The notes below the pieces were generated by a model that saw only the letters and a program-made list of their open reading frames with translations, was not told where the DNA came from and made no database searches. A stretch of DNA of 24,070 bases, from the NCBI GenBank assembly GCA_017420845.1, contig JAFQOC010000591.1, positions 1 to 24,070 of the forward strand, in the 5' to 3' direction. The translations under genes were made by a program, and so were the position numbers. This stretch comes from Clostridia bacterium. Its GTDB lineage: Bacteria; Bacillota; Clostridia; Oscillospirales; CAG-272. Positions 3,789-20,070 of this stretch are shown piece by piece; position 1 is the stretch's first letter, and the number at the start of each line of letters is the position of its first letter.

Positions 3789-3887
3789 TCAATCATCCTC
3801 GCGCTTTTTACGGGAAAGCATGGCCGCTGCCGCTGCCGCTGCCGCTAAAGCGGTGCCACCCACGCCGAGGGAGGAACGGCAGCCCTT
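3789..3887 (-). other. C-terminal GCxS + hydrophobic helix + basic tail signal (copy 1)
   Basis: KGCRSSLGVGGTALAAAAAAAAMLSRKKREDD-stop. Confidence 0.75.
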
Positions 3888-6455
3888 GCCCGTGGCTTCG
3901 GTGGTAGGCTCGGTAACATCAGGGGACAGCGCATTGGTCTCCTCAACCTCTTCGGTGGCGGGCGGGGTCTCCTCGCCGCTGTCGGTATCGGTCTCGGGGA
4001 CAGTAGAGTTGGCCTCGGTGGAAATATAGCTGAACTTGAAGCGACCGCCGGGAGCAACGTCGCCCGAAATGTAGAAGTCCATAATATCGCCTGAGAACTT
4101 GGTGTAGTCACCCTCGTCATGAACGTTATCCGTCCAGGCGAAGTTCACGGTATAGTCGTTACCGGAAAGGCCCAGATCTGCCTTGGCGATCTTGACAGTC
4201 ATGTGCTTTCCGTCGACCTTGTACTCCACATCTGCCACCTTCTCGGTCTTGCTGTAATCGTCTGCGGCGGTAAACTTCTCCAGTACCAGGGTATTCTCGC
4301 CGGCAGGGGACTTGTTGACAACGTAGTCAAAGGTGTTCCAGCCCTGATTCTCCTGGTTGCAGTCAATGTACAGGGTCATCCACAGGTTATCGGTATAGGG
4401 CGTGATGTTCTCGTTACACTCTACGTGGAACCAGACATATTCATCATCACGAGCTATCTGCGCGCCAATAATGTCGTTTCGGCCCGAGGTCTCAGTGTAG
4501 TAGTGGTCAGCGTAACCCTGAGCGTCACGGTCGTCGGTGTTGCCGATGTAGGCGGCGTAATAGGGCTCTACGGCTGCCCACTGCTCGTTGCCTGCCAACA
4601 AGTCAATGGTTTTATTTGCACTGGGGGTAGGAATAGGACGCGCACCCTTATACTGACGGACGAAATTTACAAGCTGGTAGTAGTAATGATCCTTCAAGTC
4701 ACCCTTCGTGGGTTCGATATCACGGGAGAACTCGTCGTTGTAGGTATCCAGGAAGCCCTGATCCACATATGTCTGACCGGATCCCCAGTTGTACCAACGG
4801 CTGGCCTGCCACTCGTTCCAGCCTGTGACAAATACAACCTGAGGATCGATCTTCAAAGCGTTATTCCATTGCTCGGCGAAGTTGTAGCCCCACTTGGTGG
4901 CCTCGGTCCCTTCTACCTCGTAGCGATTCTCATAGGTGACGGTGTAGGAACGGCCGCATACGTTACTGCCGCTCATACAGGCCATTTGATCCACCACGTA
5001 GTTGTGATTTAGCGCGATGCCCACGGACATCTGTTCCACTACGCCCGCGCGGCGGGACTTTTCGTCCTTGTAGTAGTACGCCTGGGGAGCCTTGGCCAAC
5101 CAGCCCCAGTTGGAGTAGCGGGTCTTGTAGTCACTGATGAGGTACTTGGCCTGACCGCGGCGGAAGGTGAAGAATTCGCTTACTTCCTCGATCAGGGGAG
5201 AGGTAGCCGTCTGGAATGCGCTCTCGATGCCCATGATCATGGGCTTGCCGTCCCAGTAGAACCACAGGTTCTGATACTTGTTTTCACGGTAAATGTCGTA
5301 GTAGATATACGAGAGCTGCATCTTGTTGTACTTGGCATCATTAAAGGGCAGAAGGTAGGAGACCTTAGGAGTCCGCACACCGTCATTCATGGCCTCGGTC
5401 CAGGTATCGTATAGGGTATAGTAGGCCTCCCGATAGATGCGGTCGGTATTGGAGTTGTCGGTAAAGACCACGTCCACCCCGGCATTGGTCAGAAGCTCGG
5501 CTTGACGGCGGAGTACCCACTGATCCGTAGAGCGGTAGTACCCATAAATGGGCTCGTTCCAGAAGAAGGTATGATGGTTGATACCGTTCCATACCTCGTG
5601 ATTCTTGTCATTGGCAGCCTCGGGATACTTCATGGATACGTCCTGAAGCGGGAAGGGTGTGCGGTAGGCAAAGCTCTCGGTGTGCCAGGTCCAGAAGAAC
5701 ATGGCCAGGGTCCTATCCTCCCGGGGATCGCCCACATCGGCGTTGGTCAGGGACTTACGCCCCAGGCCGTCGGTAAAGACCCAGGTATCGGGCATGACCT
5801 CGTGGGTGTAGATGAGGCTGTCCTCAGGGATAACATACTCCTCGGGTACAGGGTGATCGCCTGTCGCGAGATTGGAGGACTCACAGGGGAGGAATGGCTC
5901 CACGGGGGTCTTGGTGAAGGTGACAGTGATCTCCCAGTCCACAGCCTCCTCCACGTCCAGACCCAGGTAGGCGTAGCCCTTTGAGACTCTGGAATCACGC
6001 AGTCTCACGCCCACGCATCCGATAGGATCCGACAGGGCGATGAGGTATTCGCCAGCGGGCTGCTCGTCAAAGGAGAAGTTGTTGGCAGAATCGCTATTGA
6101 TCTTAGACAGATGGGTGGTGGCGACGGGCGTGCCCTGAACGGACTCCGCAAAGGAGCCTGTCCACTTGTACAGGGAAACGTCAACCTCGGGCTTCACCGT
6201 GCTCCATGACCAGGTAAACAGCGTAATGGCGAGCTTGTTGAAGGGGGCACCGAAATTCATGCGGTAACCGTAAGTAGAATAGGTATCCAACCGCTTGTAA
6301 TCCCTTGTGGCATCGGGATTATACGCGCGGATGCGGGAGATCTTGTTTGAAGCAATATTGTCATCCTCGGCATTGACAGGCATAACGAACCGTGCGTTCA
6401 TCATGAGCATCAGAATAACAAGGGACATGATACTCCATTTTTTAAAGTGTTTCAT
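3789..6455 (-). CDS. Secreted, C-terminally anchored glycoside hydrolase-like protein (GH71/GH99-like barrel plus beta domains), 888 aa
   Basis: RBS AAAGGAG before ATG 6455; signal peptide ending PVNA. Motifs AMFFWTWH, FWNEPIYGYYRSTDQWVLRRQAELLTNAGVDVVFTD, VFVTGWNEW, SRDIEP, then ARDDEYVWFHV...WMTLYID (CBM9/DOMON-like), a P/T/E linker, and KGCRSS-hydrophobic-RKKR. Confidence 0.7.
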   Translation of the reverse strand: MKHFKKWSIMSLVILMLMMNARFVMPVNAEDDNIASNKISRIRAYNPDATRDYKRLDTYSTYGYRMNFGAPFNKLAITLFTWSWSTVKPEVDVSLYKWTGSFAESVQGTPVATTHLSKINSDSANNFSFDEQPAGEYLIALSDPIGCVGVRLRDSRVSKGYAYLGLDVEEAVDWEITVTFTKTPVEPFLPCESSNLATGDHPVPEEYVIPEDSLIYTHEVMPDTWVFTDGLGRKSLTNADVGDPREDRTLAMFFWTWHTESFAYRTPFPLQDVSMKYPEAANDKNHEVWNGINHHTFFWNEPIYGYYRSTDQWVLRRQAELLTNAGVDVVFTDNSNTDRIYREAYYTLYDTWTEAMNDGVRTPKVSYLLPFNDAKYNKMQLSYIYYDIYRENKYQNLWFYWDGKPMIMGIESAFQTATSPLIEEVSEFFTFRRGQAKYLISDYKTRYSNWGWLAKAPQAYYYKDEKSRRAGVVEQMSVGIALNHNYVVDQMACMSGSNVCGRSYTVTYENRYEVEGTEATKWGYNFAEQWNNALKIDPQVVFVTGWNEWQASRWYNWGSGQTYVDQGFLDTYNDEFSRDIEPTKGDLKDHYYYQLVNFVRQYKGARPIPTPSANKTIDLLAGNEQWAAVEPYYAAYIGNTDDRDAQGYADHYYTETSGRNDIIGAQIARDDEYVWFHVECNENITPYTDNLWMTLYIDCNQENQGWNTFDYVVNKSPAGENTLVLEKFTAADDYSKTEKVADVEYKVDGKHMTVKIAKADLGLSGNDYTVNFAWTDNVHDEGDYTKFSGDIMDFYISGDVAPGGRFKFSYISTEANSTVPETDTDSGEETPPATEEVEETNALSPDVTEPTTEATGKGCRSSLGVGGTALAAAAAAAAMLSRKKREDD

Positions 6456-6498
6456 ATAAGTCTCCTTTATGTAAGGATATTGGGGGGATCTGGTTATC

Positions 6499-6543
6499 GG
6501 GATTGCCTCGCCCGTGAGGATAAACCACAGGCGAGGCAACCCC
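6499..6543 (-). promoter_or_regulatory. Intra-operon stem-loop without U tract
   Basis: Minus-strand RNA GGGGUUGCCUCGCCUGUG-9 nt-CACGGGCGAGGCAAUCCC pairs over 18 bp with two G-U wobbles; begins 7 nt after the stop at 6551. Confidence 0.7.
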
Positions 6544-6550
6544 TTATTGA

Positions 6551-9529
6551 TCATTTGTCAGTCTTCATTTCGGGAATGGTAATGTCCGAGAACGCGCCAT
6601 ATTCCAGGGAAGAGAACTGGAACACCGCGGCGGTTGCGTTACCGCGGTTGGAGATACCGATCTGGGAAAGAGGGGTATCCGCGATCAGGGTGTTCTCAAC
6701 AATCTCCTGGGTTCCGTCGGCCAGGGTGATCTTGGCGGTCTCCGCGAAGGTGTTGCCGGGGATACAATTGGCGGCCTTGATATCGCCATAGGTCTTGCTT
6801 CCGGAAAGCTCGACGGTGGCCATGAGCTTGCCGTCCACCAAAACGTATACGCAGTAGCCGTCATCCGCCAGGGTCAGCTCGGTACCGGTGCAGAGGATGG
6901 TGTAGTACTTGTTGCCCACACGTCTGGAGACGGTGCTGTCGTAGTACTTCACGATCAGGTGCAGGTTGCCATCCATAATGGCCGCGTAGATACCCGCGCC
7001 GCCGGTATGACCCGCACCGTCACCCTCATAGAACTGACGGATTCTCGTATTCGAGGAAGCGGTTTCGTCAGAGATGACCTGCTGGTAGCCGCGAACGATC
7101 ATGTAGCTCTTGAGCTTGCCATCAGCAGCCAGGGTGGTCTGGGCATTGTTGAGCTTGAAGTAGTACAGACCGTCGTTGGTGTGGGCCATGGCGTTGATCA
7201 TGTGCATACCGTAGACCTTCTGACCGTTCAACTCCTCGATCATACAGCCACCCTGAGCCAGCTTCATTTCAAAGAAACCGGGCAGGTCGGTCTGATCGAA
7301 GGTAGTGCCCGCATCGTACTTGTTGACATCAGCGGTGAAGCTGACTGTGGTATTGGCAATGCCGTAGAGTTGATCCTTTTCGCCGCAGGCGGTGCAGGTG
7401 CCCTCTGCGAAGCTATGGCCAAGAGGAGCGCCCTCAACGATCTGGCAGAGGGAGCAGTACTTGGACTCGGTACAGGTGGCATCCACCCAATTGTGATTGC
7501 AGAAAGCGAACTCGGGAATCGTGATCGCGGAGAAGGGGCCGTACTCCACAGAGGAGAACAGGAACGTACCCGCAGCGGAGTTACCGCGGTTGGAAATACC
7601 GATCTGGGACAGAGGGGTATCTGCGATCAGGGTGTTCTCGATGGTCTCCTCGTTGCCGTTTGCCAGCTTGATGGTAGCGGAGGCGGCAAAGGTGTTGCGA
7701 GGACTGCAGTTCTCGGCCTTGATATCCGCGTAGGTGATGCTGCCAGAGAGAGCAACGGTAGCCATGAGCTTGTCGCCCACCAGGATATACACTGTGGAGC
7801 CGTCATCTGCCATGGTCAGCGCGGTGCCCTCGCAGGGGATGGTGTATAGCTTATTGCCGATGCGGCGCTCCGCCGAGACGTTGTAGTACTTCAGTATGAT
7901 GTGCAGGTTTCCGTCCATAACAGCCGCGTAAATACCCGCGCCGCCCGTATGGCCCGCTCCGTCATTTTCATAGAAGGACAGGATCCTTGTGTTCGAAGAC
8001 AGGGAGGCATCGGAGATGACCTGCTGGTAGCCGCGAACGATCATGTAGCTCTTGAGCTTGCCATCGGCTGCCAGAGCGGTCTGGGCATTGTCGAGCTTGA
8101 AGTAGTACAGACCGTCATTGGTGTGTACCATGGCGTTGATCAGGTGCATGCCGTAGACCTTCTGTCCGTTCAGCTCCTCAATTACGCAATTACCCTGAGC
8201 CAGCTTCATTTCGAAGAAATTGGGCAGGTCGGTCTGATCGAAGGTCGTGCCATTCTCGTAGCCATTGACGTTGGAGGTGAAGCTTCCCGTAGTGTCGGGG
8301 ATGACAATGGGCTCGGGCTCAGGCTCGGTCTCCTGGGGCTCAGTCTCCTGAGGCTCGGTCTCTTGGGGCTCGGTCTCAGGGGGCGTTGTCACGTCCATTT
8401 CGGGGATGGAGATCTCCGAGAAGGGGCCGTACTCCAGATAGGAGAACAGGAAGGAACCGGCTTGGGCGTTACCGCGGTTGGAGATACCGATCTGGGACAG
8501 GGGGGTATCTGCGATCAGGGTGTTCTCAATGGTCTCCTCGGTGCCATCTGCCAGCTTGATTGTGGCGGAAGCGGCGAAGGTGTTGCCGGGCGAGCAGTTC
8601 TCGGCCTTGATATCCTCATAGGTGATGCTGCCGGACAGGGCGATGGTGGCCAGGAGCTTGTCACCCACCAGAACGTACACGGTGGAGCCGTCATCTGCCA
8701 TGGTCAACTCAGTGCCCTCGCAGGGAACGGTGTAGAGCTTGTTGCCGATACGGCGGTTGGCGGTGTCATCGTAATACTTCAGAATGAGATGGAGATTGCC
8801 ATCCATGATGGCCGCGTAGATGCCCGCGCCGCCAGTATGGCCCGCACCGTCGTTCTCATAGAACTGCTTGATGGAGATCACCTGCGCGGCTCCCGTATCC
8901 TCGTTCTGGATCAACCAGTCGGAGTTGACTCGCTGGTACGCGCGAATCAGCATGTAGGACTTGAGTTTACCGTCAGCAGCCAGGGTGGTCTGGACGTTAT
9001 TGGTTTTGAAGTAGTAGAAGCCATCGTTGGTGTAGTACAAACCGTTGATCAGGCGCATGGCGTACACTTTCTGACCGTTGAACATCTCAACGCCGCAACT
9101 TCCCTGAGGCAGAGACATATCGAACAGGTTGAACATATCGGTGTAATCAATGGCGGTACCCACATCCTCGTTCTCCACCTCGGTAAAGAAGTAAATATCC
9201 GTGTTTTCGATGATCTCGGGCTCGGTCTCCTGAGGCTCGGTCTCCTGAGGCTCGGTCTCCTGAGGCTCGGTCTCCTGAGGCTTGGTCTCCTGAGGCTCGG
9301 TCTCCTGAGGCTTGGTTTCCTCAGGCTTGGTTTCCTGGGGCTTGGTCTCTTCGGGCTGGGTCTCCTCCGGCTTGGAATCCTCAGGCTGAGTCTCCTCAGG
9401 CTCGGTGGGGGTGCCGGTCCCGGTTTCATGGGTGTCTGTGGGCTGCTCCGCAGGGGGATCCTGGGTACAGGCTGTCACAGCGAGCAACAGCGCGAGCAGC
9501 AGGCAGGCGATCACGAGTAGCTTTTTCAT
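6551..9529 (-). CDS. Surface lipoprotein with three tandem ~260-aa domains of unknown family, 992 aa
   Basis: RBS GAAAGGA spacing favours ATG 9529. Lipobox VTAC, pentapeptide stalk, three homologous domains sharing DGAGHTGGAGIYAA and ENTLIADTPLSQIGISNRGN. Confidence 0.9.
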   Translation of the reverse strand: MKKLLVIACLLLALLLAVTACTQDPPAEQPTDTHETGTGTPTEPEETQPEDSKPEETQPEETKPQETKPEETKPQETEPQETKPQETEPQETEPQETEPQETEPEIIENTDIYFFTEVENEDVGTAIDYTDMFNLFDMSLPQGSCGVEMFNGQKVYAMRLINGLYYTNDGFYYFKTNNVQTTLAADGKLKSYMLIRAYQRVNSDWLIQNEDTGAAQVISIKQFYENDGAGHTGGAGIYAAIMDGNLHLILKYYDDTANRRIGNKLYTVPCEGTELTMADDGSTVYVLVGDKLLATIALSGSITYEDIKAENCSPGNTFAASATIKLADGTEETIENTLIADTPLSQIGISNRGNAQAGSFLFSYLEYGPFSEISIPEMDVTTPPETEPQETEPQETEPQETEPEPEPIVIPDTTGSFTSNVNGYENGTTFDQTDLPNFFEMKLAQGNCVIEELNGQKVYGMHLINAMVHTNDGLYYFKLDNAQTALAADGKLKSYMIVRGYQQVISDASLSSNTRILSFYENDGAGHTGGAGIYAAVMDGNLHIILKYYNVSAERRIGNKLYTIPCEGTALTMADDGSTVYILVGDKLMATVALSGSITYADIKAENCSPRNTFAASATIKLANGNEETIENTLIADTPLSQIGISNRGNSAAGTFLFSSVEYGPFSAITIPEFAFCNHNWVDATCTESKYCSLCQIVEGAPLGHSFAEGTCTACGEKDQLYGIANTTVSFTADVNKYDAGTTFDQTDLPGFFEMKLAQGGCMIEELNGQKVYGMHMINAMAHTNDGLYYFKLNNAQTTLAADGKLKSYMIVRGYQQVISDETASSNTRIRQFYEGDGAGHTGGAGIYAAIMDGNLHLIVKYYDSTVSRRVGNKYYTILCTGTELTLADDGYCVYVLVDGKLMATVELSGSKTYGDIKAANCIPGNTFAETAKITLADGTQEIVENTLIADTPLSQIGISNRGNATAAVFQFSSLEYGAFSDITIPEMKTDK
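6569..7351 (-). repeat. Domain repeat R3 (C-terminal copy)
   Basis: Anchor ACCGCGGTTGGA at 6641; homologous to the copies at 7583 and 8471. Confidence 0.9.
7511..8293 (-). repeat. Domain repeat R2 (middle copy)
   Basis: Anchor at 7583, 942 bp from the R3 anchor. Confidence 0.9.
8322..8381 (-). repeat. 15-bp coding tandem repeat x4 (P[PQ]ETE linker)
   Basis: Units such as GGCTCGGTCTCCTGG and GGCTCAGTCTCCTGA on the + strand. Confidence 0.9.
8399..9199 (-). repeat. Domain repeat R1 (N-terminal copy)
   Basis: Anchor at 8471, 888 bp from the R2 anchor; carries a 7-aa insertion relative to R2/R3. Confidence 0.9.
9219..9398 (-). repeat. 15-bp coding minisatellite x12 (P[EQ]E[TS][EKQ]-type stalk)
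   Basis: Consensus + strand unit GGCTCGGTCTCCTGA; 12 contiguous units with no spacers, in frame. Confidence 0.95.
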
Positions 9530-9568
9530 GGTCATATTCCTTTCTTTATGGTATGGTTTGGGAGAACG

Positions 9569-9652
9569 TCAGGACTTTTTCTTCAGAACGTAAGCCGCGG
9601 CAGCCAGTATGATGACGGAGCTGATTCCAAGGACGGAGCCGCAACCCTGTTT
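9569..9652 (-). other. C-terminal GCxS + hydrophobic helix + basic tail signal (copy 2)
   Basis: KQGCGSVLGISSVIILAAAAYVLKKKS-stop. Confidence 0.75.
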
Positions 9653-10813
9653 TTCGGGTGCGGTGGTGACCTCCTCGGGCTTTTCGGTACCTTCGGGCTC
9701 CGTGGGGGCTTCGGTCTCGGGGATCTCTTCAGTGGGGGTCTCGGTAGGGGCTTCCGTGGCGGGCTCGGTCACCTCCTCGGTGGGAGGCTCGGTCACGTCG
9801 AATTCATCTCCGTCGCCCTCAGTCTCATCCTCGCCCAGGATCTTGATGCCGAAGCAGTTCAGCTCCATCCCATCCTGAACGGGCATCTCAAGCTTGATAC
9901 CGTTTTCCGCGGGAGTCCAATTACAGATGGGCATACCAGTTTCGTCCACCATACCGTTCAGAGTACCCGCTCCCCAGTTATAGATACCGTTAGCGCCGGG
10001 CTTTCCTACAGAGCGATCCAGATAGTACAGGGAAATACCAATCTTCAGGGGCTTGTTGTCAACACCGCCCATGTAGATGGTGGGGTTCTCGCCCCAGGCG
10101 GCTTTGAAAACGTAATCATTGTACAACTGCTCCCAGGACATGGCGAACTCAGCGCTCCAGCCTGTCAGTGTGGCGCGAGCCGCTCCCTTGACACCGTCAC
10201 CGTTCTCTTCGGAGATCAAGCCGTCCATATCCGACTCCTGACGGTGGAATTCCAGCGGCAGACCGTCCTCAATGCAGCAGAAGGAATAGAAGATGTTTTT
10301 CTGGTTGGTCAGGGAATCGGGATCCTGCTCCACCTTCTCGCCCAGCTTGCCGCCAAAGTCAATAGCGATCTGGAAGGCATCGCCATTGTAGTAATTTTGG
10401 GTGGTGCCGTAGCAGAAATCAGGGTCGGTCACATAGAAGCCGACGTAGAAGTAATTTTCGTCTGCCACGAAATAGGCGGAAATGTTCCACCCCTCGGGCA
10501 TACCGGGATCAAGATAGCCGCCTTGGCCGTTGTGATCTTTCACCTTGTCACCAAAGCCGGTCCAGGAGATCATATTCTCAGGGCCGATTGTGGTCACAGA
10601 ATAACCCGCGTCAGCCCAGTCGGCCATATCACCGTCCGTCAGATCGAGCTTTTCAGAGGCATCGGGATCCCAAGTGATATCTACCTGTCCAACAGGATAA
10701 AACTCTTCGGCACTACCAATCGTATAAGCTGCGCCGTCCCATGCAACAACCGTTATTGCGGCCATGGACATGAGCATAGCTATTACGCAGATGATTGCAA
10801 TGATTTTTTTCAT
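9569..10813 (-). CDS. Secreted CBM9/DOMON-like carbohydrate-binding protein with C-terminal GCxS anchor, 414 aa
   Basis: RBS AGGAGG; signal peptide; LDLTDGDMADW, AYFVADENYFYVGFYVTD, NGDAFQIAID, GWSAEFAMSW (CBM9-like pattern); P/T/E linker; QGCGSVLG-hydrophobic-KKKS. Confidence 0.7.
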   Translation of the reverse strand: MKKIIAIICVIAMLMSMAAITVVAWDGAAYTIGSAEEFYPVGQVDITWDPDASEKLDLTDGDMADWADAGYSVTTIGPENMISWTGFGDKVKDHNGQGGYLDPGMPEGWNISAYFVADENYFYVGFYVTDPDFCYGTTQNYYNGDAFQIAIDFGGKLGEKVEQDPDSLTNQKNIFYSFCCIEDGLPLEFHRQESDMDGLISEENGDGVKGAARATLTGWSAEFAMSWEQLYNDYVFKAAWGENPTIYMGGVDNKPLKIGISLYYLDRSVGKPGANGIYNWGAGTLNGMVDETGMPICNWTPAENGIKLEMPVQDGMELNCFGIKILGEDETEGDGDEFDVTEPPTEEVTEPATEAPTETPTEEIPETEAPTEPEGTEKPEEVTTAPEKQGCGSVLGISSVIILAAAAYVLKKKS

Positions 10814-10990: not shown

Positions 10991-12094
10991 TTACTCTTTC
11001 CAAGAAGGAATCTCATCCTTGAAGAGCTGGTAGAACTCCGCATTTGTGACCAGGACTATGGAATCATCTTTGGCCGCAGCCTCGGTTATCATCTTAATAT
11101 ACTCTTCGAATTGATCCCAACTATTGGCGATATCCAATTCATATCCGTGTCCCCACATGAGGAACAGCATATCCTCCTTGCAATCCGTTGCAATAAATTT
11201 ACGAAGCAGGTACATCGCATCGCTATCGTTGATCGAGCACGTCGGATACCATGTCATAAAATACTCGGGGAGAGAGAATCTGTCCAAGCCCTTGTTCGTA
11301 TTGCGGTTGGTGCAGCTTCCGTAGCGGATATCGGTGGTCGCCAGAACGGTTTCAATGACTTGATCGTTCAGGTTCTTGTCACCCCCCGGCCAGGCTACGC
11401 CGACAGGCTTGTAGCCGAAGAGCTCCTGGATATTTTGGGCATCACCGAGGAGTTCTTGGGTGACCTCCTGTTCGGTAAGATTATTGAGCCCGCGATGATT
11501 GAGGGAATGACACTCCACATCAAATCCATCGTAGACTCCGGACAGGATCTGCTCTTTGGTGTAGCGCAGATGCGGCACATCCGGCCGTCCCGCCTGCTGT
11601 CCAACCTGAGGCCAATCGACACCGTACATACCTGTATTAATATAGAAAGTACAACAATAGGCATTGTATTTTTTCAGGATTTCAATAATACGTTCATCCT
11701 GCGTGATTCCATCGTCAAATCGTAATGTAAAATATTTTTTCGGAGTGCCGTCACGAACGATACCGTGACCTTCACAGCCCTCAGGAACTTGAGTGATCGC
11801 CTCGGTGGTAACTTCCTCGGTCGTAATTTCCTCAGTAGTGAATTCCTCGGTGGTGACTTCTTCTGTCATACTCTCCTCCTCTGTCGCGGTTTCGTCATCC
11901 GGGGGCATCGTTGGCTCTTCGGTCATCGGTTGATACTCGCCTGTTGCTTCCGCAGACTCTCCTGGGGATACGTCGGGAGTCGAGGAAACGCCGTCCTGAT
12001 TCCCGGGATCTGCATCGCAGGCACTCAAAAGGAGACATATTACGATGGAGAGCAGGCAACAAATGAAAAGAATACCTGTTTTTTTCTTCATCAT
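10991..12094 (-). CDS. Polysaccharide deacetylase (CE4/NodB-like) lipoprotein, 367 aa
   Basis: RBS AAAGGA; lipobox LSAC; E/T stalk; LRFDDG (motif 1), HSLNH (metal-binding motif 2), AWPGG, WGHGYE. Confidence 0.85.
   Translation of the reverse strand: MMKKKTGILFICCLLSIVICLLLSACDADPGNQDGVSSTPDVSPGESAEATGEYQPMTEEPTMPPDDETATEEESMTEEVTTEEFTTEEITTEEVTTEAITQVPEGCEGHGIVRDGTPKKYFTLRFDDGITQDERIIEILKKYNAYCCTFYINTGMYGVDWPQVGQQAGRPDVPHLRYTKEQILSGVYDGFDVECHSLNHRGLNNLTEQEVTQELLGDAQNIQELFGYKPVGVAWPGGDKNLNDQVIETVLATTDIRYGSCTNRNTNKGLDRFSLPEYFMTWYPTCSINDSDAMYLLRKFIATDCKEDMLFLMWGHGYELDIANSWDQFEEYIKMITEAAAKDDSIVLVTNAEFYQLFKDEIPSWKE
11801..11860 (-). repeat. 15-bp coding tandem repeat x4 (EE[VFI]TT stalk)
   Basis: CTCGGTGGTAACTTC, CTCGGTCGTAATTTC, CTCAGTAGTGAATTC, CTCGGTGGTGACTTC. 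Confidence 0.85.
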
Positions 12095-12186
12095 AAGCTG
12101 TCCTTTCTATTGTTACATGTTTCTTTTTGTGGTTCACGCCCTGTAAAATAAGTGAAAAAGTACAAGTATCGGTAGAATCTATTGCC

Positions 12187-12215
12187 ATTATAGCACAAAT
12201 CTGACAATAATGCAA
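12187..12215 (-). promoter_or_regulatory. Sigma-A promoter for the deacetylase/surface-protein cluster
   Basis: Minus strand TTGCAT (12215-12210), 17 bp, TG-c-TATAAT (12195-12187). Confidence 0.75.
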
Positions 12216-12299
12216 TAGTTTTTTCAAAATTTCTTTTAACATTGTATAAATGTCACTATTTGGTATTTCAAAAAACTTTTTCCTGCTATATCTGAACGC

Positions 12300-12331
12300 A
12301 AAAAGGAGACGATCCTGAAAAGATCGTCTCC
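12300..12331 (-). terminator. Intrinsic terminator of the AraC gene
   Basis: GGAGACGATC / GATCGTCTCC 10-bp stem, 7-nt loop, then TTTTT on the minus strand. Confidence 0.85.
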
Positions 12332-12373
12332 AATGCACGTATACAATAATGAATAGATCGTGTTTTAGAGGGA

Positions 12374-13198
12374 TTACGGAGAGCCCGCCTTTTTTTCGTC
12401 GGAGGGAGTCGTTCCGAAACGTTTCTTGAACTGACGGTAAAAGGAAGAGTAATCCGCAAATCCCGCTTCCTCGGCGGCAGTCACAGCGGGGGTTCCGCCT
12501 CGAATCAATCTACGGGCCATATTCAGCCGCTTCAAAATGACGTAATCCCAAATAGAGATCCCCATAGAATGACGGAAGGTCTGATTGATATAGGAGTAGC
12601 TGTACCCGAAATGCTCGGCCAGCATATCCATGTTTTCTATGCATTGAGGAGCTTCATTGATGTAATCGATGATGCGGCTCACTAAACTTTTTCCCTCTAC
12701 CGTAGGCGCGCTGTATCCGCCACCATCCTGTATCGCATTAGCAATCTCGTAAAGCAAGGTAGGAATATATAAGCGAATCCGAATCCTCCTTTCCTGCTCG
12801 GGCAACGGTTCATGAACCATATGGAGAAGCATGTTTTGAATCTTTTCCAACCGCGGCGAAGGCGCGATATAGTTACGATGCCCGAGGGGGCGATCAAAAA
12901 AGGAAGACAGCAAGAATTCTCGGTAGACTGGCGCAACAAATCCCGTTGTGAAGTGTAGTGCGATTCGCTCGTAGGGTCCGTCGGGACTGATATGAGGCGT
13001 ATGGGTTTCTCCTTCCCGCATGATCATGATGCATCCGGGAGACAACGGGTAGTCATAGCCTTCTACTGTATAGTATCCTGTCCCTCTCAGCAGACAAAAG
13101 ATTTCGTTTTGGGTATGCGTATGCAGGAAAAATTGACTTTCCTCTGGATGGATCGTTGTTTTATGATGCATATAGAGTTCTTCGTCAGTATAGATCAT
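12374..13198 (-). CDS. AraC/XylS-family transcriptional regulator, 274 aa
   Basis: Start MIYTDEE after AAGGA. N-terminal cupin (LHTHTQNEIFCLLRGTGYYTVEG..Y.LSPG); C-terminal HTHs (LAEHFGYSYSYINQTFR, AAEEAGFADYSSFYRQFKKRFGTTP). Confidence 0.93.
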   Translation of the reverse strand: MIYTDEELYMHHKTTIHPEESQFFLHTHTQNEIFCLLRGTGYYTVEGYDYPLSPGCIMIMREGETHTPHISPDGPYERIALHFTTGFVAPVYREFLLSSFFDRPLGHRNYIAPSPRLEKIQNMLLHMVHEPLPEQERRIRIRLYIPTLLYEIANAIQDGGGYSAPTVEGKSLVSRIIDYINEAPQCIENMDMLAEHFGYSYSYINQTFRHSMGISIWDYVILKRLNMARRLIRGGTPAVTAAEEAGFADYSSFYRQFKKRFGTTPSDEKKAGSP

Positions 13199-13229
13199 GG
13201 CATCCTTTTCCTTGTATATTTTTAAGCAT

Positions 13230-13258
13230 ATTATATCATGAAGCAATCGAAAATGCAA
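13230..13258 (-). promoter_or_regulatory. Sigma-A promoter for the AraC gene
   Basis: Minus strand TTGCAT (13258-13253), 17 bp, TG-a-TATAAT (13238-13230). Confidence 0.75.
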
Positions 13259-13449
13259 TATAAAAAAGAAAAAATTTCATGCTCGATATGCACAAATTTC
13301 CAAAAAGCCATCTGTAACTCTCTTGTACACACAAAAACACGGAAACGGAGGATGTAACATTGGGGTTTTTTCATATATGCACAATATGGTAGTTTCAAAC
13401 CGCGGACAACGTTAAATATGCAATGTAATTGATTTTTTTGAAAATATAC

Positions 13450-13478
13450 TTGCTTTTTTGTAACAATTCTGCTATAAT
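13450..13478 (+). promoter_or_regulatory. Sigma-A promoter for the CE15-GH106-uxa operon
   Basis: TTGCTT (13450-13455), 17 bp, TG-c-TATAAT (13470-13478). Confidence 0.75.
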
Positions 13479-13606
13479 ATAGGCAAGAGTTGATCCTCTC
13501 AAGTCACTTAGGCCGTTTTTGCGTACTGCACCGATGTTGTACGCATACTTCTTATTCATTAAACAAAGCTGTACAATTTCACAAAATTTATAAAGGAGCT
13601 CACGCT

Positions 13607-14743
13607 ATGAATCAAGATTATCTTCACGTAACGAAGTATGAGGTCCTCGGGCAGCTGCCCGACCTCTTCACATTTCAGGACGGTACCCCCGTTGAAACAC
13701 CGAAAGACTGGAAAAGACGCCGTACCGAGTTGTACCGGACTGCCGTAGAGCTTCAGTACGGTACCCTGCCGCCCAAGCCCGAGTTTATGGAGGTCGAGAC
13801 TCTCTATATTGGTGCCAAGGTACGCTCCTACCGGATTCATACGGGTACGAAAGCGGCTCCCGTCAGCTTCCTGATGAAGCTGGTACTTCCTACCGGCGGG
13901 TATCATTATCCGGCCATCATTGACGGCGATATGTGCTTCCCCTATCACATGGACAGTGAGTACCTTGCCGCCGCCACCGATGAAGGCGTGGCCTGGGTAT
14001 TCTTTGACCGCACCGAGCTGGCCCACGATATACAGGGTGAGGGCCGCCGCAAGGGTCAGCTGTATGACACCTACCCCGATTACACCTTTGGCGCAATCGG
14101 TGCCTGGGCGTGGGGATACTCCTGCTGTGTGGATGCTCTGGAGATCATCTGTAAGGATCAGGAAAAGCCTCTTATCGATCTTTCCCTGATTGCCTTTTCG
14201 GGGCATTCTCGAGGCGGCAAGACTGCCGCTCTGGCCGGGGCCGTGGATACACGTGCGGCTATCGTGAATCCCAACGAGACCTGTGCCGGTGCTTGCGGCT
14301 GTTACCGCATTCACATTGAGGGCTACTGCGACGGCATCCCGCCTTTCCGTTCCGAGACCCTGGCCGATCTGTGGCGGAACTATTCCTTCTGGATGGGCCC
14401 CGGCATGGGAGACTACGCTAACCGTGAGGACGAGCTTCCGTTTGATGCTCACTTTCTGAAAGCCATGATAGCTCCCCGTGTTCTCTTTGTTTCGGAGGCG
14501 GCCGGAGATCTTTGGGCCAATCCCGTGGGCTCCTGGATGACCACCATGGCTGCCGGAAAAGCATTCGGGTTTTTGGGCGTGCCGGATAACCTATACTGGT
14601 ACTTCCGTGAAGGAACGCACTATCACACGGTGGGTGACGTGAAAATGCTTGTACATATTATCAAGCGGCAGAGAGATCCCTCCCTGCCTCTGCCCGAGGC
14701 CTTTTATAAAACGCCCTTCCCTCCCTTTGATCCCATCTATTGA
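13607..14743 (+). CDS. CE15 glucuronoyl esterase-family protein, cytoplasmic, 378 aa
   Basis: RBS AAAGGAG; LPDLFTFQDG, GAIGAWAWG, nucleophile elbow GHSRGGK (14201-14221), LPFDAHFLKAMIAPR, DLWANP, REGTH; no signal peptide. Confidence 0.85.
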   Translation: MNQDYLHVTKYEVLGQLPDLFTFQDGTPVETPKDWKRRRTELYRTAVELQYGTLPPKPEFMEVETLYIGAKVRSYRIHTGTKAAPVSFLMKLVLPTGGYHYPAIIDGDMCFPYHMDSEYLAAATDEGVAWVFFDRTELAHDIQGEGRRKGQLYDTYPDYTFGAIGAWAWGYSCCVDALEIICKDQEKPLIDLSLIAFSGHSRGGKTAALAGAVDTRAAIVNPNETCAGACGCYRIHIEGYCDGIPPFRSETLADLWRNYSFWMGPGMGDYANREDELPFDAHFLKAMIAPRVLFVSEAAGDLWANPVGSWMTTMAAGKAFGFLGVPDNLYWYFREGTHYHTVGDVKMLVHIIKRQRDPSLPLPEAFYKTPFPPFDPIY

Positions 14744-14773
14744 GAAAAACCAATGTTCTGTAAGGAGGCTCAT

Positions 14774-17335
14774 ATGAACGATACCAGATTGCTCGAGGTT
14801 CTTACCCGACAGGAGGATAATTATCTCCTCCCCTTTTATTGGCAGCACGGCACTCACCGCGACCGTATTCCCGCTCAAATACAGCGAATTTATGAGAGCG
14901 GATGTCGCGCGGTGTGTGTAGAATCCCGTCCTCACCCTGATTTTTGCGGTCCCAACTGGTGGGCCGATATGGATGTGATCCTGGATGAGTGCGCAAAACG
15001 AGATATGAAGGTCTGGATTCTGGATGATAAGAAATTCCCGACAGGCTACGCCAACGGTCTGATCGAAAAGAAGTATCCCTACCTACGCCAACGTGAGATC
15101 ATTGAGGAACACGTAGATGTTCTGGGTCCTGCTCCCGATACGGCTTTTCTGGTGAATCACACCGTCAAGGATGATGAGACCTTGGGTGTGTATGCGTTCC
15201 GTCGGGCAGACGAGGGAGAAGCCCTCGTGGGTCCTCCCATCGATCTGACGCCTACCCTCTCGGAGGGATACGTCTACTGGGACGTTCCCGAGGGATGCTA
15301 TCGCGTATTCTTCTATACCAAGTCCTTCCGCGGAAGCCGGGGCAACTATATTGACATGATCACCCCTGAATCCTGCCGTGTGCTTTTGGAGGGTGTATAT
15401 GAACCTCATTATGAGCATTATGCCAAATACTTCGGGAACACACTCGTGGGCTTCTTCTCAGACGAGCCTTCCTTTGGTAATGGCATGGCAACCCGTCACC
15501 CTACGGATCCCAGCGGTCATGAGCGCACGTTGGGCACGGTGGGCATCGCGCTTCCTTATTCCCCCAAGGTGATCGAATATATGTCCGCTGAAATGGGAGA
15601 GGATGCCGTCCCCTATCTGGGCGAGCTGTGGTTCAGTAGTGAGCACGCTCCCGTTACACGACTGGCCTATATGAATGCCATCACCCGCCTGTATCGGGAT
15701 AATTTCTGCTATTTGGTGGGCAACTGGTGCCGCGACCACGGTGTCATGTACATCGGTCATGTCATCGAGGACTATAACTGCCACGCACGAACCTGCGGCG
15801 GTACGGGACACTACTTCCGGGCGTTGGAAGGGCAGGATATGGCGGGAATTGACATTGTCTTGCATCAGGTTATGCCCGGTATGGCACATCATATCCATAA
15901 TTGCAGCCTGGGAACCGGCATCAGCGATCCGGCGTTTTATCATTACGTTCTGGGTCAACTGGGTGCTTCCCTCGCCCATCAGTATCCCCAAATGAAGGGG
16001 AGAGCGCTGTGCGAAGAATTCGGCGCATACGGTTGGGCAGAGAGCAGTACCATGATGAAGTGGATCACGGACTTCTTGTTGGTGCGGGGCATCAACCATT
16101 TCGTCCCCCATGCCTTTTCTCCCGATTATCCTGATCCCGATTGTCCTCCTCACTTTGGTGCAGAGGGGCACGACCCTCAGTTTGAGGGCTTTACAAAGCT
16201 CATGAACTACACCAATCAGGCAGCGCACCTGCTGTACGGTGGGGAGCATATCACTTCCTGCGCCATTCTGTACCACGCTGAAGGCGAGTGGATGAACAAC
16301 AAGGGCGAGTATATGTTCACCCAAGTCCCCGCTAAAGCGCTGTTGGACGGACATCTATGCTACGATATCATCTGTCAGGAAACCTTGGAGGCCGCCCGCG
16401 TCGAAAATGGTAAGCTGGTTGTCAACGGAGAGGTGTACGGTGCATTGGTCGTACCTTACGGACAGGTGCTGAACCACGCGCTGACCCCGGAGGTCAAGCG
16501 GCTCTTGGAAGCAGGTGTACCCGTGCTTCTTTGCGGTGGCAGACCTGAGGGCTTGGAGGGTGAGGTCATTTCCGCCTCGGAGCTCCCCGCCCGCATTCGG
16601 GAGCTGGGTCTGGCCGATATCACCGTGGAGGGAGATTGCCCCCTGCTCCGTCATTATCATGTGCGGAGAAACGGTGCGGATGTATTCATGTTCTTCAATG
16701 AGGACAGTATTCATACCGCTGATGCTACGGTCACGTTGCCCGTAAACGGAGATTTCGCTCGTCTGCGTCTTTTGGAGGATGGAGCCCATCGCGATGTCAC
16801 AGAGAACGGGCGAATCCGCGTAAAGCTATTGCCCGGGCAATCTGAGATCTTGGTTTTCGGTGACGAAGCCGTGGCAGAGCTACCGATTCTTCCCGCCATT
16901 TCGTATACTATACCGCTGGCTCCCCATTATACCATCGAGCTGGCAAGCTCCGAGGATCTGACCTCCTTCGAATTTTATAAGGAGACAGACAAGCTGGTCA
17001 ATATGACCGCATCTTCTGAAAAGCCTGCCTTCTCGGGTATTATGCGCTACTCCTTTGAGCTGTCATTGGATAGTATTCCTTCCCTTGCCGCTTTGGATCT
17101 GGGACGGGTTGGGCAGACGGCAAAGGTGTTCGTAAATGACAGCTTCGCGGGCTTACGCATTTCCGCTCCTTACGTGTTCCCCATCTCCCATCTGCTGCGA
17201 GAGGGGCAAAACGCCGTAAGAGTGGAGGTCGCCAATACCTTGGTCGGCAAAGAGCGGGATCGATTCTCACAGAACATGCCTATCCCGCCCTCAGGACTTC
17301 TCGGCCCTGTACAAATTCTTGTATATCAATCCTGA
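14774..17335 (+). CDS. GH106-like glycoside hydrolase (putative alpha-L-rhamnosidase) with C-terminal GH2-type sugar-binding domain, 853 aa
   Basis: RBS AAGGAGG; KVWILDDKKFPTG, FFSDEP, AGIDIV, CEEFGAYGW, RGINHFVPHAF, LDLGRVGQTAKVFVN...GQNAVRVEVANT; no signal peptide. Confidence 0.72.
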   Translation: MNDTRLLEVLTRQEDNYLLPFYWQHGTHRDRIPAQIQRIYESGCRAVCVESRPHPDFCGPNWWADMDVILDECAKRDMKVWILDDKKFPTGYANGLIEKKYPYLRQREIIEEHVDVLGPAPDTAFLVNHTVKDDETLGVYAFRRADEGEALVGPPIDLTPTLSEGYVYWDVPEGCYRVFFYTKSFRGSRGNYIDMITPESCRVLLEGVYEPHYEHYAKYFGNTLVGFFSDEPSFGNGMATRHPTDPSGHERTLGTVGIALPYSPKVIEYMSAEMGEDAVPYLGELWFSSEHAPVTRLAYMNAITRLYRDNFCYLVGNWCRDHGVMYIGHVIEDYNCHARTCGGTGHYFRALEGQDMAGIDIVLHQVMPGMAHHIHNCSLGTGISDPAFYHYVLGQLGASLAHQYPQMKGRALCEEFGAYGWAESSTMMKWITDFLLVRGINHFVPHAFSPDYPDPDCPPHFGAEGHDPQFEGFTKLMNYTNQAAHLLYGGEHITSCAILYHAEGEWMNNKGEYMFTQVPAKALLDGHLCYDIICQETLEAARVENGKLVVNGEVYGALVVPYGQVLNHALTPEVKRLLEAGVPVLLCGGRPEGLEGEVISASELPARIRELGLADITVEGDCPLLRHYHVRRNGADVFMFFNEDSIHTADATVTLPVNGDFARLRLLEDGAHRDVTENGRIRVKLLPGQSEILVFGDEAVAELPILPAISYTIPLAPHYTIELASSEDLTSFEFYKETDKLVNMTASSEKPAFSGIMRYSFELSLDSIPSLAALDLGRVGQTAKVFVNDSFAGLRISAPYVFPISHLLREGQNAVRVEVANTLVGKERDRFSQNMPIPPSGLLGPVQILVYQS

Positions 17336-17393
17336 ACTTTTTCCTACACATCGTTTGAGCATTGAGCGGTTTTCCCGAACAGGAGGTTGAATT

Positions 17394-18674
17394 ATGAAAA
17401 ACACAGCTTTGGAACAGGTCATCCAATTTGGCGAAGGCGGTTTTCTCCGCGGCTTTGCGGATTGGATGCTGCAAAAAATGACAGATGTCGGAGCTTTTGA
17501 CAGCAAAGTCGTGGTCGTACAACCTATTGAAAAAGGCATGTGCGATCTATTGACAGCACAGAATTGCCAATACACCCACATCATTCGCGGCGCGGAGGGC
17601 GTGGAGACCTCGGTCATCGACGTGATCTCCCGTTGTGTCAAGCCCTATGAGGATTGGGAAGCCTACCTGTCCCTGGCGGATATTCCTTCCATGAGATTCA
17701 TTATTTCCAACACCACGGAGTCGGGCATCGTGTTCTGCGAGACGGATATTCCCGAAAACGCGCCCTTTATTTCTTTCCCTGCCAAGCTCACTCTGCTCAT
17801 GAAGCGCAGATTCGAGCAAGGACTGGGGGGCTTTATCCTTCTGCCCTGCGAGCTGATCGACCGAAACGGCGATAATCTCAAGCGGTGCGTTTTTCAGTAT
17901 GCCGAGCTCTGGGGCTTGGGTGATGATTTCAAGGCATGGGTAGAGGAAGAGAATATCTTTACCAACACCTTGGTGGATCGCATCAATACGGGCTATCCAA
18001 AGGGTGAAGAGCTGCATCTGGGCTACGAGGATGCCATGGTCAATACCTCGGAGTATTTCCATCTGTGGGTCATTGAGACGGAATACGACATTGAGAAGGA
18101 ACTGCCCTTCTCGGCGGCGGGACTCAATGTGATCGTAACCAGGGACAAGCTGGAAATGTACCGCACCCGCAAGGTGCGTATTCTGAACGGCGCCCATACC
18201 TCCCTGGTTCCCTATGCCCTGCTGTCGGGCCTGGATACGGTGGGCTCCTGCATGGAGGACGAAACCATGAAGGAGCATATCCGCAAGTGCGTGTTTGATG
18301 AGATCATTCCCACGCTGGATCTCCCCCGCGACGAGTTGATTGACTACGCGAACAACGTGCTGATTCGTTTTTCCAACCCCTACATCAAGCACTATCTGTC
18401 CTCCATTGCGCTCAATTCGGTCAGCAAGTTCAAGGTGCGGGTACTGCCTTCCATTCTGGAGTATCACAAGCGGTTCGGTGTGTATCCCCCCACCCTGACC
18501 TTCGCCTTTGCCAAGCTGATCGAATTCTACCGCACCGATATGACCAATGATGCCCCCGACGTGGTGGCGTTTATGAAAACGGCATCCGTCAAGGAGATCC
18601 TGTCCAAGACCGAATATTGGGGCGAGGATCTGACATGTCTGTACGACGAGGTAGCACGCTATGTGGATCCATAA
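17394..18674 (+). CDS. uxaB: Tagaturonate reductase (altronate oxidoreductase)
   Basis: IQFGEGGFLRGFADW, ISNTTESGI, FPAKLT, LPCELID, NTLVDRI, KVRILNGAHT, RFSNPYIKH, SIALNSVSKF; RBS AGGAGG. Confidence 0.93.
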   Translation: MKNTALEQVIQFGEGGFLRGFADWMLQKMTDVGAFDSKVVVVQPIEKGMCDLLTAQNCQYTHIIRGAEGVETSVIDVISRCVKPYEDWEAYLSLADIPSMRFIISNTTESGIVFCETDIPENAPFISFPAKLTLLMKRRFEQGLGGFILLPCELIDRNGDNLKRCVFQYAELWGLGDDFKAWVEEENIFTNTLVDRINTGYPKGEELHLGYEDAMVNTSEYFHLWVIETEYDIEKELPFSAAGLNVIVTRDKLEMYRTRKVRILNGAHTSLVPYALLSGLDTVGSCMEDETMKEHIRKCVFDEIIPTLDLPRDELIDYANNVLIRFSNPYIKHYLSSIALNSVSKFKVRVLPSILEYHKRFGVYPPTLTFAFAKLIEFYRTDMTNDAPDVVAFMKTASVKEILSKTEYWGEDLTCLYDEVARYVDP

Positions 18675-20037
18675 GCTGGATAACGTGGAGATCGATCTGA
18701 CGGACGGCCACAAGTACGCGCGGCAGGATCTGCAGGTCGGTGATCTTATCATTAAATACGGCAACCCCATCGGGCACGCCACCGCGCCCATCCGCAAGGG
18801 CGAGCACGTCCATACCCACAACATGAAAACCAACCTATCGGGGATCATTGAGTACAGCTATACGCCCCGAAAGGATTTTCCCCGCGAGACTCCTGCAACG
18901 GATGTGCCCTGCTTTATGGGCTACGTCCGCCCGAATGGGGACGTAGGCATCCGAAACGACGTCTTTATCGTCAATACGGTGGGCTGTGTCAACAAGATCT
19001 CGGAGCGCTTGGCCGCCTTGACGGGGGCTGTCGCCTTTCCCCATCCCTTCGGTTGCTCCCAGCTGGGAGAGGATCAAGCCGTCACTCAGTTCATTCTCAA
19101 AGGTATCGTCAACCACCCCAACGCGGCGGGCGTACTGGTTTTGGGTCTGGGCTGCGAGAATAACAACATCGAGGTATTCAAAACAGTTCTGGGCGATTGG
19201 TCCCCCGAGCGGGTCAAATTTCTGAACTGCCAGGATCACGAGGACGAGATCGCGGAGGGCGTACGCCTGATTCGCGAATTGCAGGCATATGCAGACACCT
19301 TTGTTCGTCAGCCCGTGCCTGTGTCAGCCTTGCGGGTGGGACTGAAATGCGGCGGTAGCGACGGCTACAGCGGCATTACCGCCAACCCCTTGGTAGGTCG
19401 CTTTTCGGATAAGCTGATCTCTATGGGCGGCTCCTGCGTTCTGACCGAGGTTCCCGAAATGTTCGGTGCCGAGCATCTTCTCATGGCCAGAGCCGAAAGC
19501 GAGGATGTGTTCCGCAAAATTGTAGATCTCATTAACAATTTCAAGGCCTACTACGAAAAGCACGGCCAGGTGATCTACGAGAATCCCTCCCCCGGGAACA
19601 AGAAGGGCGGAATCACGACCTTGGAGGAAAAGTCTCTTGGCTGTGTGCAAAAGGCGGGCAGCGCGCCCGTCGTGGACGTGCTGGACTACGGTGATACGGT
19701 GCGGCGGGGCGGTCTCTCCCTGCTGAATGGCCCGGGAAACGATCTGGTCGCCATTACCAATCTCTTTGCCGCAGGTGTACATATGATCCTATTCACCACG
19801 GGCAGAGGTACGCCCGTGGGAAGCGGTGTGCCTACAGTCAAGATCGCCACCAATCAAGGGTTGGCAACCCAAAAAGCCTCGTGGATCGACTTTGATGCAA
19901 GCCCCATCTTGGAGGGCATGGATCTGACAGATGAACTGTTTGATTACGTGCTTCGGGTAGCAGGCGGAGAAAAATCGAAAAACGAGACTTACGGATATAA
20001 AGAAATATCCATTTTTAAGCAAGGCGTTACGTTGTAA
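18661..20037 (+). CDS. uxaA: Altronate dehydratase (short SAF domain + catalytic domain)
   Basis: GHKYA..IKYG.PIG..HVHTHN.KTNL, GIRND, HPFGCSQLG, GLGCENN, GLKCGGSDG.SGITANP, NPSPGNKKGGITTLEEKSLG, FTTGRGTP; overlaps uxaB by 14 bp. Confidence 0.95.
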   Translation: MWIHKLDNVEIDLTDGHKYARQDLQVGDLIIKYGNPIGHATAPIRKGEHVHTHNMKTNLSGIIEYSYTPRKDFPRETPATDVPCFMGYVRPNGDVGIRNDVFIVNTVGCVNKISERLAALTGAVAFPHPFGCSQLGEDQAVTQFILKGIVNHPNAAGVLVLGLGCENNNIEVFKTVLGDWSPERVKFLNCQDHEDEIAEGVRLIRELQAYADTFVRQPVPVSALRVGLKCGGSDGYSGITANPLVGRFSDKLISMGGSCVLTEVPEMFGAEHLLMARAESEDVFRKIVDLINNFKAYYEKHGQVIYENPSPGNKKGGITTLEEKSLGCVQKAGSAPVVDVLDYGDTVRRGGLSLLNGPGNDLVAITNLFAAGVHMILFTTGRGTPVGSGVPTVKIATNQGLATQKASWIDFDASPILEGMDLTDELFDYVLRVAGGEKSKNETYGYKEISIFKQGVTL

Positions 20038-20070
20038 CTGCCCTTGCAAGAAAGGACGGTATATAAGTTT

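Follow-up and report, generated by a model that had tools for sequence, protein, structure and literature searches.

Among C-terminal sorting signals with an invariant cysteine, MYXO-, JDVT-, Synerg- and CGP-CTERM have been described, in a paper that mentions neither a Firmicutes or Clostridia system nor an Lgt partner (Haft 2023). For MYXO-CTERM, the working model holds that a lipid is placed on the Cys and that a CPBP protease then cleaves the tail; cleavage by MrtX has been shown experimentally, the transferase 'remains unidentified', and an Lgt-like enzyme has been proposed for the step (PMC11980579). Here we describe a Gly-Cys (G-C) tail on two secreted proteins encoded in a 24,070-nt stretch of DNA from a Clostridia bacterium (contig JAFQOC010000591.1 of assembly GCA_017420845.1; the whole stretch is called the window below), together with a gene pair, encoding an Lgt paralogue (Lgt2) and a CPBP/Rce1-like protease, to which this tail is linked both genetically and phyletically.

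While Cys-type CTERM signals served by CPBP proteases are a known kind of system, what is new here is that the transferase is a dedicated one, that the host belongs to the Clostridia and that sortase appears to have been replaced. In the literature outside subscription journals we found no description of an Lgt paralogue paired with a CPBP protease, nor of a Cys tail in Clostridia. For the step that modifies the Cys, the present system offers a dedicated gene.

A modular Gly-Cys tail

The two tail-bearing genes of the window, P0001 and P0002, both lie on the minus strand, and their products share a layout of signal peptide, body, acidic stalk rich in Pro, Thr and Glu (P/T/E), Gly-Cys motif, transmembrane (TM) helix and basic cluster (Table 1). 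An earlier, sequence-only reading of the window had drawn attention to these two tails; it placed them correctly, although the genes run on the minus strand, and translation likewise recovered the signal peptides and stalks that it had described on both proteins. It had also called the bodies unrelated, which agrees with a best BLASTP E value of 0.06 between them. P0001 probably starts at M34 (window position 6455), where a signal-peptide-like segment begins and with which residue its ESM Atlas entry also starts. A Pfam scan found no domain in the P0001 body, which is a member of a 17-member paralogue cluster of tail-bearing proteins. Relatives in other Bacillota that carry a dockerin or CBM6 appear in the ESM Atlas, an observation that serves as a lead only.

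To place these tails in their genomic context, a profile hidden Markov model (HMM) was built from tails of the window's genome (G000; 652 contigs, 2.93 Mb, 57% GC, 70.6% complete) and searched against all of its stop-to-stop open reading frames (ORFs) of at least 80 residues (n = 12,338), with matches taken at E ≤ 0.02. The model matched 53 of the 12,338 ORFs, in each case with the tail-defining match at the extreme C-terminus, and there was a clean gap below the accepted matches, with noise beginning at E 0.2. Neither reversed ORFs (0/12,338) nor shuffled ORFs (0/12,338) were matched. The tails of P0001 and P0002 scored 37.5 bits (E 1e-9) and 40.6 bits (E 1e-10), respectively, and a model built without the two window tails recovered both at E about 1e-8 (8.7e-9 for P0001).

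Across the 53 tails the Gly directly before the Cys (position -1) was universal, while Lys occurred at -3 in 32 and at -2 in 25. On the other side of the Cys, position +1 was G, R or K in 45/53 tails, +2 was S in 44/53 and mostly A or G in the remainder, +3 was A, V, S or T, +4 was L, V or I, and +5 was G in 25/53; the basic cluster followed the Cys at a median distance of 21 residues, which is one helix length. A looser scan of the same genome added the variants G-C-G-A, G-C-T-G and Y-G-C-T. Because such variants exist, and because S at +2 is found in only 44/53 tails, we take the core of the tail to be G-C rather than G-C-x-S-x-L-G. The motif first proposed from the two window tails holds in its G-C core; extended to G-C-x-S it describes most copies but not all.

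The proteins that carry the tail are otherwise diverse. Their bodies sort into 27 sequence clusters, and the domains seen in a sample of ten cargo proteins, among them GH123, GH5, apiosidase-like, discoidin, GDPD and EEP nuclease/phosphatase domains, are typical of surface cargo. A stalk like that of P0001 precedes most of the 53 tails, and signal-peptide-like starts were found in 34 of the 36 tail proteins that have their N-terminus within the contig. Conservation among homologues, which the sequence-only reading had named as a check, is equally clear: all 36 complete P0002 homologues of relatives (36/36) keep G-C at the same place, with bodies 35–83% identical, while stalk length and sequence drift freely around the fixed G-C. 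That the Cys is invariant in tails and homologues alike, while its neighbours vary, points to chemistry at the thiol.

Taken together, the HMM counts against controls, the spread over unrelated clusters, the signal peptides and the conservation among homologues establish the G-C tail as a genuine modular, selected C-terminal sorting domain. By Haft's definition it qualifies as a tripartite sorting domain, with a motif, a TM helix and a basic cluster at the C-terminus of proteins that have signal peptides, and it occurs in many copies, on unrelated proteins, within a restricted range of organisms that matches the range of a candidate enzyme pair (below).

Some tails depart from the common layout. 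Some P0002 paralogues form a subfamily (contigs C281 and C18; loci L143, L157, L165, L167, L168 and L170) whose tails have neither P/T/E stalk nor K-K prefix, and a helical-looking segment ending in K-Y-G-C-[TS] runs straight into the helix; these paralogues suggest that G-C is the only fixed requirement. One tail copy on contig C386 (L008:5435-5707, minus strand), which lies beside the gene pair described below, has about 10 extra residues (T-K-K-Y-P-N-G-L-N-V-N) after a weakened basic cluster, and these are kept in a relative (L062).

Comparison with named signals

The two window tails and 20 further tails of the genome were scanned against NCBIfam release 20.0 at E values up to 10. No CTERM model of that release reached its cut-off on any of the 22 tails, in keeping with the earlier suggestion that the signal has no named model. 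The strongest sub-cut-off matches were to sortase-type models (Rumino_NPXTG, GVDTG, LAETG, LPXTG), the best of which reached E 2.5e-4 among the 20 tails. Where a window tail matched sortase models (TIGR01167, NF033846, NF058571), it did so through the helix and basic part only, at 14.6–15 bits against cut-offs of 23.5 and 29 bits.

The named Cys-type signals were more distant. MYXO-CTERM (TIGR03382) matched one of the 20 tails at E 8.6 and neither of the two window tails, and Synerg-CTERM (TIGR04564) matched two of the 20 at E 0.13 or worse, its best score being 12.3 bits against a cut-off of 22.5. A Pfam scan of the window proteins found no anchor domain. Neither sortase (PF04203) nor rhomboid/rhombosortase (PF01694) was found in the window's genome, at its 70.6% completeness.

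An Lgt paralogue encoded with a CPBP protease

The sequence-only reading had postulated a dedicated protease/transferase encoded outside the window, and computationally this expectation was borne out on contig C386 of the same genome. The genome encodes four CPBP/Rce1-like genes, one of which lies on this contig (locus L008). On its minus strand follow, in order, the 3' end of a tail protein, a complete 487-aa tail protein, Lgt2 and the CPBP gene; Lgt2 begins 118 nt after the 487-aa tail protein and overlaps the CPBP gene by 8 nt. The three other CPBP genes (contigs C13, C37 and C74) were set aside as candidates, none of them adjoining an Lgt gene. A minus-strand ORF of 371 aa that follows the CPBP gene is probably spurious; a GH99-like protein is encoded on the other strand.

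Lgt2 scored 67.2 bits on TIGR00544, under the equivalog cut-off of 118.9, while a second Lgt of the genome (contig C469) scored 182.4 bits on the same model, and an LspA gene is present as well. Lgt2 is thus a divergent paralogue, with the canonical Lgt and LspA serving the ordinary lipoproteins. The best NCBIfam matches of the C386 protease were MrtJ (NF033192; 26.4 bits against a cut-off of 75) and Mrt_core (NF040914; 22 against 100), both far below cut-off, which leaves it outside the myxosortases, MrtS (NF040589) included.

The pair is conserved well beyond this genome. Among genus-mates, Lgt2 was followed by CPBP in 11 of 11 loci, with a tail protein upstream in most, and seven more distant loci, which take in three other genera, retain the order Lgt2, CPBP. 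In one genus (g5) the two genes are fused into a single 561-aa ORF, with the LGT domain at residues 7–251 and the Rce1-like domain at 401–502. When the Lgt2 alignment was scanned against one genome per prokaryote species, at least 575 species had a relative, of which the best 80 (42–83% identity) were examined: CPBP lies directly downstream of Lgt2 in 76 of these 80 species loci, and G-C-tailed genes (one of them with the variant S-C) flank the pair on one or both sides in at least 25. All 80 are uncultured metagenome-assembled genomes (MAGs); the samples came from deer, sheep, goats, horses, humans and digesters, and in almost every case the label is Clostridia, Eubacteriales or Oscillospiraceae. 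Weaker Lgt-like matches (24–41% identity) were not counted as part of the system because they have no adjacent CPBP gene.

Several variants of the locus were seen along the way. The Lgt2 ORFs of L041:4973-6529 (G023) and L042 (G020) are unusually long (517–522 aa); that of G023 (518 aa) overlaps CPBP in another frame, possibly as a frameshifted fusion or a C-terminal extension, and was left out of the fusion count. In L041, L042, L046 and L047 (G023, G020, G009 and G025) the Lgt2-CPBP pair is followed, about 1.3 kb further downstream, by a CPBP gene of the C74 type (55–71% identity), which may encode a second processing enzyme. A further Lgt-like paralogue, 32–39% identical to Lgt2 and with no adjoining CPBP, occurs in L048–L050 (G012, G009 and G020) and in others.

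Distribution of tails, pair and sortase

In a sample of 61 relatives, each of the 28 genus-mates had tails (2 to 63 matches per genome), as did three other genera of the family; elsewhere there was at most one borderline match. Lgt2 orthologues, defined by at least 45% identity, were confined in this sample to those three genera and to 27 of the 28 genus-mates. Counted over 32 tail-bearing and 29 tail-less genomes, Lgt2 was thus present in 31/32 of the former versus 0/29 of the latter, the sole exception being an 88%-complete genome that has tails and lacks both Lgt2 and its CPBP.

An even sample across the order (401 genomes from 30 families; tail-positive at two or more matches, strong Lgt2 at E 1e-84 or better) gave the same picture. 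Strong Lgt2 was found in eight of the 401 genomes and tails in exactly those eight, with a single weak tail match in one other genome. One of the eight belongs to a different family and carries tail, tail, Lgt2, CPBP and tail within 4.4 kb on one contig; this cassette is the only clearly separate occurrence in the sample.

Sortase showed the opposite pattern. It was absent from 31 of the 32 tail-bearing genomes (all 29 of the genus and two of the three other positive genera) and present in 25 of the 29 tail-less genomes, such that sortase and G-C tails are nearly mutually exclusive in the sample of relatives. The sequence-only reading had recommended a scan of the genome for further tails and phyletic profiling against sortase, rhomboid, CAAX/Abi, exosortase/archaeosortase and Lgt paralogues; the former gave the 53 matches against none in the controls, and from the latter it is the Lgt2-CPBP pair whose distribution equals that of the tails, with sortase largely absent. 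Kin are not independent of one another, however, and we therefore read these distribution counts as consistency rather than as statistics.

A proposed pathway and its alternatives

We propose the following pathway. The protein would be exported by Sec through its N-terminal signal peptide and held in the membrane by the tail helix in an N-out/C-in orientation, which would place the basic cluster inside the cytoplasm and the Cys at the outer face of the membrane. The Cys thiol would then receive a lipid through Lgt2, probably diacylglycerol taken from phosphatidylglycerol. The protease translated together with Lgt2, a glutamic intramembrane enzyme of the CPBP/Rce1 type, would next cut just after the lipidated Cys, much as Rce1 cuts after prenyl-Cys, and discard the helix. 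Finally, the mature enzyme would sit on the cell surface by its C-terminal lipid, with the P/T/E stalk, proposed to be a wall-spanning spacer, reaching through the wall. The data show the signal, its modular spread and its genetic and phyletic tie to the Lgt2-CPBP pair; the lipid, the order of the steps, the cut site and the topology are what we infer from them. The reading as a whole, in which some 50 or more secreted proteins per genome have their tails lipidated by Lgt2 and trimmed by CPBP, is in our judgement the probable one, if by no means a safe one.

Several points weigh against it. First, all of the organisms concerned are uncultured MAGs known from sequence alone. Second, the polarity of the tail helix is opposite to that of a signal peptide, and its recognition by an Lgt fold would be without precedent. 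Third, a predicted Lgt2-CPBP complex scored 0.00, which points neither way. Fourth, in the alignment to E. coli Lgt, Lgt2 has Tyr at H103 and Cys at both N146 and E151, so that the lipid donor, or even the transferase activity itself, could differ. Fifth, apart from one cassette in another family the positives come from one genus and six genera related to it, so that most are closely related and the perfect profile rests on few independent events.

In a first alternative, which we think unlikely, CPBP would cut the tail and Lgt2 would not act on it: the housekeeping Lgt would lipidate the Cys, or there would be no lipid and the protein would be released or re-anchored, and Lgt2 would serve another substrate class. 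There is precedent for such an arrangement, as MrtX processed a MYXO-CTERM tail in E. coli with only the housekeeping Lgt at hand, and the authors name Lgt as a leading candidate (PMC11980579); a canonical Lgt is also present in the window's genome. Yet were Lgt2 without a role in the pathway, a linkage to CPBP as lasting as the one observed would not be expected, with the genes overlapping, adjacent in nearly all of the 80 loci, fused in one genus and distributed like the tails.

The active site of Lgt2 bears on a second alternative. When the Lgt2 profile was aligned to E. coli Lgt (5AZB), the residues opposite R143, R239, E243 and R246 were kept, and R145, R215 and E219 of Lgt2, which align with R143, R239 and E243, were invariant. 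The latter three are reportedly essential in E. coli Lgt, according to work on its structure. Their conservation fits the standard phosphatidylglycerol-dependent reaction and speaks against the idea, to which we give little credence, that Lgt2 and CPBP both act on the tail by a different chemistry. The Cys or the new C-terminus would then be joined to another acceptor, perhaps in a transfer reaction, with a glycolipid or lipoteichoic-acid anchor, a wall polymer or a non-diacylglycerol lipid as candidates. CPBP enzymes are moreover known as hydrolases and not as transpeptidases (Haft 2023; PMC11980579). What such chemistry would account for is the invariant Cys-rich core of Lgt2 (G-R-L-G-C-x-x-x-G-C-C-x-G), which covers N146 and E151, along with the Tyr at H103 and the score below the Lgt equivalog cut-off (67 against 119 bits); a wall-linking function would also fill a gap in a clade without sortase.

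A third alternative takes both enzymes away from the tail, and we consider it quite improbable. The tails would be plain, unprocessed anchors with a structural role for G-C, as a helix cap or in a disulfide, the pair would tailor N-terminal lipoproteins in the manner of LnsB, and tails and pair would share a distribution through common descent. Plain anchors have no need of an invariant Gly-Cys, which is kept here in 53/53 tails and 36/36 homologues, and the tail genes directly flank the pair in at least 25 loci, with cassette and tails found together in a second family. The operon and the fusion, together with these flanking tail genes, speak against this alternative and the first alike. It is true that most positives are kin, which makes co-distribution alone weak, and that LnsB, a CPBP-fold protein of Staphylococcus aureus, has a part in the N-acylation of lipoproteins (PMC7387801). 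The catalytic motifs of CPBP enzymes are missing from LnsB, however (PMC7387801), whereas the CPBP orthologues here (n = 76) retain FEExxFR, FxxxH and a further His motif at 95% conservation or more, and therefore look catalytically competent. Finally, a sortase signal of the LPXTG, NPXTG or GVDTG type was rejected, as the tails have no x-T-G motif, the models score below cut-off and no sortase gene was found in the genome at its 70.6% completeness.

Lipidation by Lgt2 and trimming by CPBP is the reading we prefer. As the transferase gene is dedicated and is tied to the protease by operon, fusion and phyletic pattern, the hypothesis is testable with three genes in a heterologous host. If true, it would explain how an abundant group of uncultured Clostridia that live in herbivore and human guts and lack sortase can display some fifty glycoside hydrolases and binding proteins. 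It would also improve annotation, the tails and both enzymes carrying generic names at present, and would provide a new C-terminal lipid-anchoring tag for surface display.

Other features of the window

The gene between P0001 and P0002 encodes P0003, an ordinary N-terminal lipoprotein whose lipobox ends in Cys23 and whose P/T/E repeat stalk of about 85 residues starts right after it. It has no G-C tail (no tail HMM match) and matches no Pfam family at cut-off. P0003 does not belong to the signal, but with its stalk of the same kind it has the mirror image of the layout seen in the G-C-tailed proteins on either side. Downstream of the stalk are three internal repeats of about 290 residues, the third preceded by a Cys-rich insert of about 40 residues.

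The cargo genes adjoin a pectin/uronate utilisation cluster (window positions 10991-24068). In addition to the deacetylase and the regulator listed in Table 1, this cluster encodes a CE15 glucuronyl esterase, a GH106-like protein, a mannitol-dehydrogenase-family enzyme, an altronate/galactarate dehydratase, a GH28 and the glucuronate isomerase UxaC. At the opposite end, the serine recombinase that runs off the window may mark the boundary of a mobile element.

Table 1. Positions of the tail-bearing genes, their parts and neighbouring genes in the window, and of the Lgt2-CPBP pair at locus L008 (contig C386).
Feature	Position	Strand	Description	Basis
P0001 cargo gene	3789..6455	minus	888 aa from probable start M34; ORF open to 6554	
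P0001 signal peptide	about 6369-6455	minus		translation
P0001 stalk	3888..4019	minus	acidic, P/T/E-rich, 44 residues, directly before G-C	translation
P0001 tail	3792..3887	minus	K-G-C-R-S-S-L-G, TM helix, R-K-K-R-E-D-D	translation, tail HMM
P0001 Cys codon	3879-3881	minus		
P0001 stop codon	3789-3791	minus		
P0003 gene	6551..9535	minus	between P0001 and P0002	translation
P0002 cargo gene	9569..10813	minus	414 aa; weak CBM9-like match	
P0002 signal peptide	about 10742-10813	minus	clear	translation
P0002 stalk	9650..9832	minus	acidic, P/T/E-rich, 61 residues, before G-C	translation
P0002 tail	9572..9649	minus	Q-G-C-G-S-V-L-G, TM helix, K-K-K-S; stop 9569-9571	
CE4 deacetylase	10991-12094	minus		
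AraC regulator	12374-13258	minus		
Large serine recombinase	2-874	minus	Resolvase and Recombinase domains; runs off window edge	
Lgt2	L008:2841-3725	minus	294 aa	PF01790, 96.3 bits (cut-off 24.9)
CPBP protease	L008:1940-2848	minus	302 aa	PF02517, 59.7 bits (cut-off 22.4)

Relation to known systems

The closest counterpart is the MYXO-CTERM/MrtX system of Myxococcota (TIGR03382, NF040914). In both systems the tail is tripartite, its invariant Cys stands in a Gly-Cys context, a genome carries dozens of copies on secreted proteins that are otherwise unrelated, the protease is of the CPBP/Rce1 type, and lipidation is proposed to precede cleavage. The present system differs in its host, a member of the Clostridia rather than a diderm with a type II secretion system, in a basic cluster that is Lys-rich rather than Arg-rich, and in the dedicated Lgt paralogue that is coupled or fused to the protease. 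The Cys-type signals of Haft (2023) are alike in that C-terminal Cys signals were paired with CPBP proteases by comparative genomics, and among them the JDVT system likewise has conserved neighbourhoods of enzyme and substrate genes.

Anchoring by sortase offers a parallel in layout, as LPXTG proteins also combine a signal peptide, stalk, motif, TM helix and basic tail for the surface display of secreted enzymes. In contrast, there is no LPXTG-like motif here, and no sortase domain was found in the window's genome or its 28 genus-mates. CAAX processing in eukaryotes and archaea is a further parallel: there, a Cys near the C-terminus is lipidated and a protease of the Rce1 family, which shares its Pfam family (PF02517) with the protease here, cuts just after it. 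It takes place in the cytoplasm, with a prenyl lipid and the loss of three residues, whereas the pathway proposed here would be extracytoplasmic, would use an Lgt-type transferase and would remove about 27 residues including the TM helix.

Lastly, the pathway of lipobox, Lgt and LspA has in common with the present system a transferase of the Lgt family and a Cys, with small residues beside it, at the outward-facing end of a membrane helix that an intramembrane peptidase removes. Here the signal is C-terminal instead of N-terminal, the polarity of the helix is reversed, and the peptidase is a glutamic CPBP enzyme and not the aspartic LspA. In the direction from helix to Cys (L/I/V, A/V/S, S, G, C), the tail seems to resemble a lipobox read forwards. 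We give an even chance to the broader proposal that this clade swapped sortase anchoring for a mirror-image lipoprotein pathway, and that Lgt-family enzymes are the lipid transferases of Cys-type signals generally, MYXO-CTERM included.

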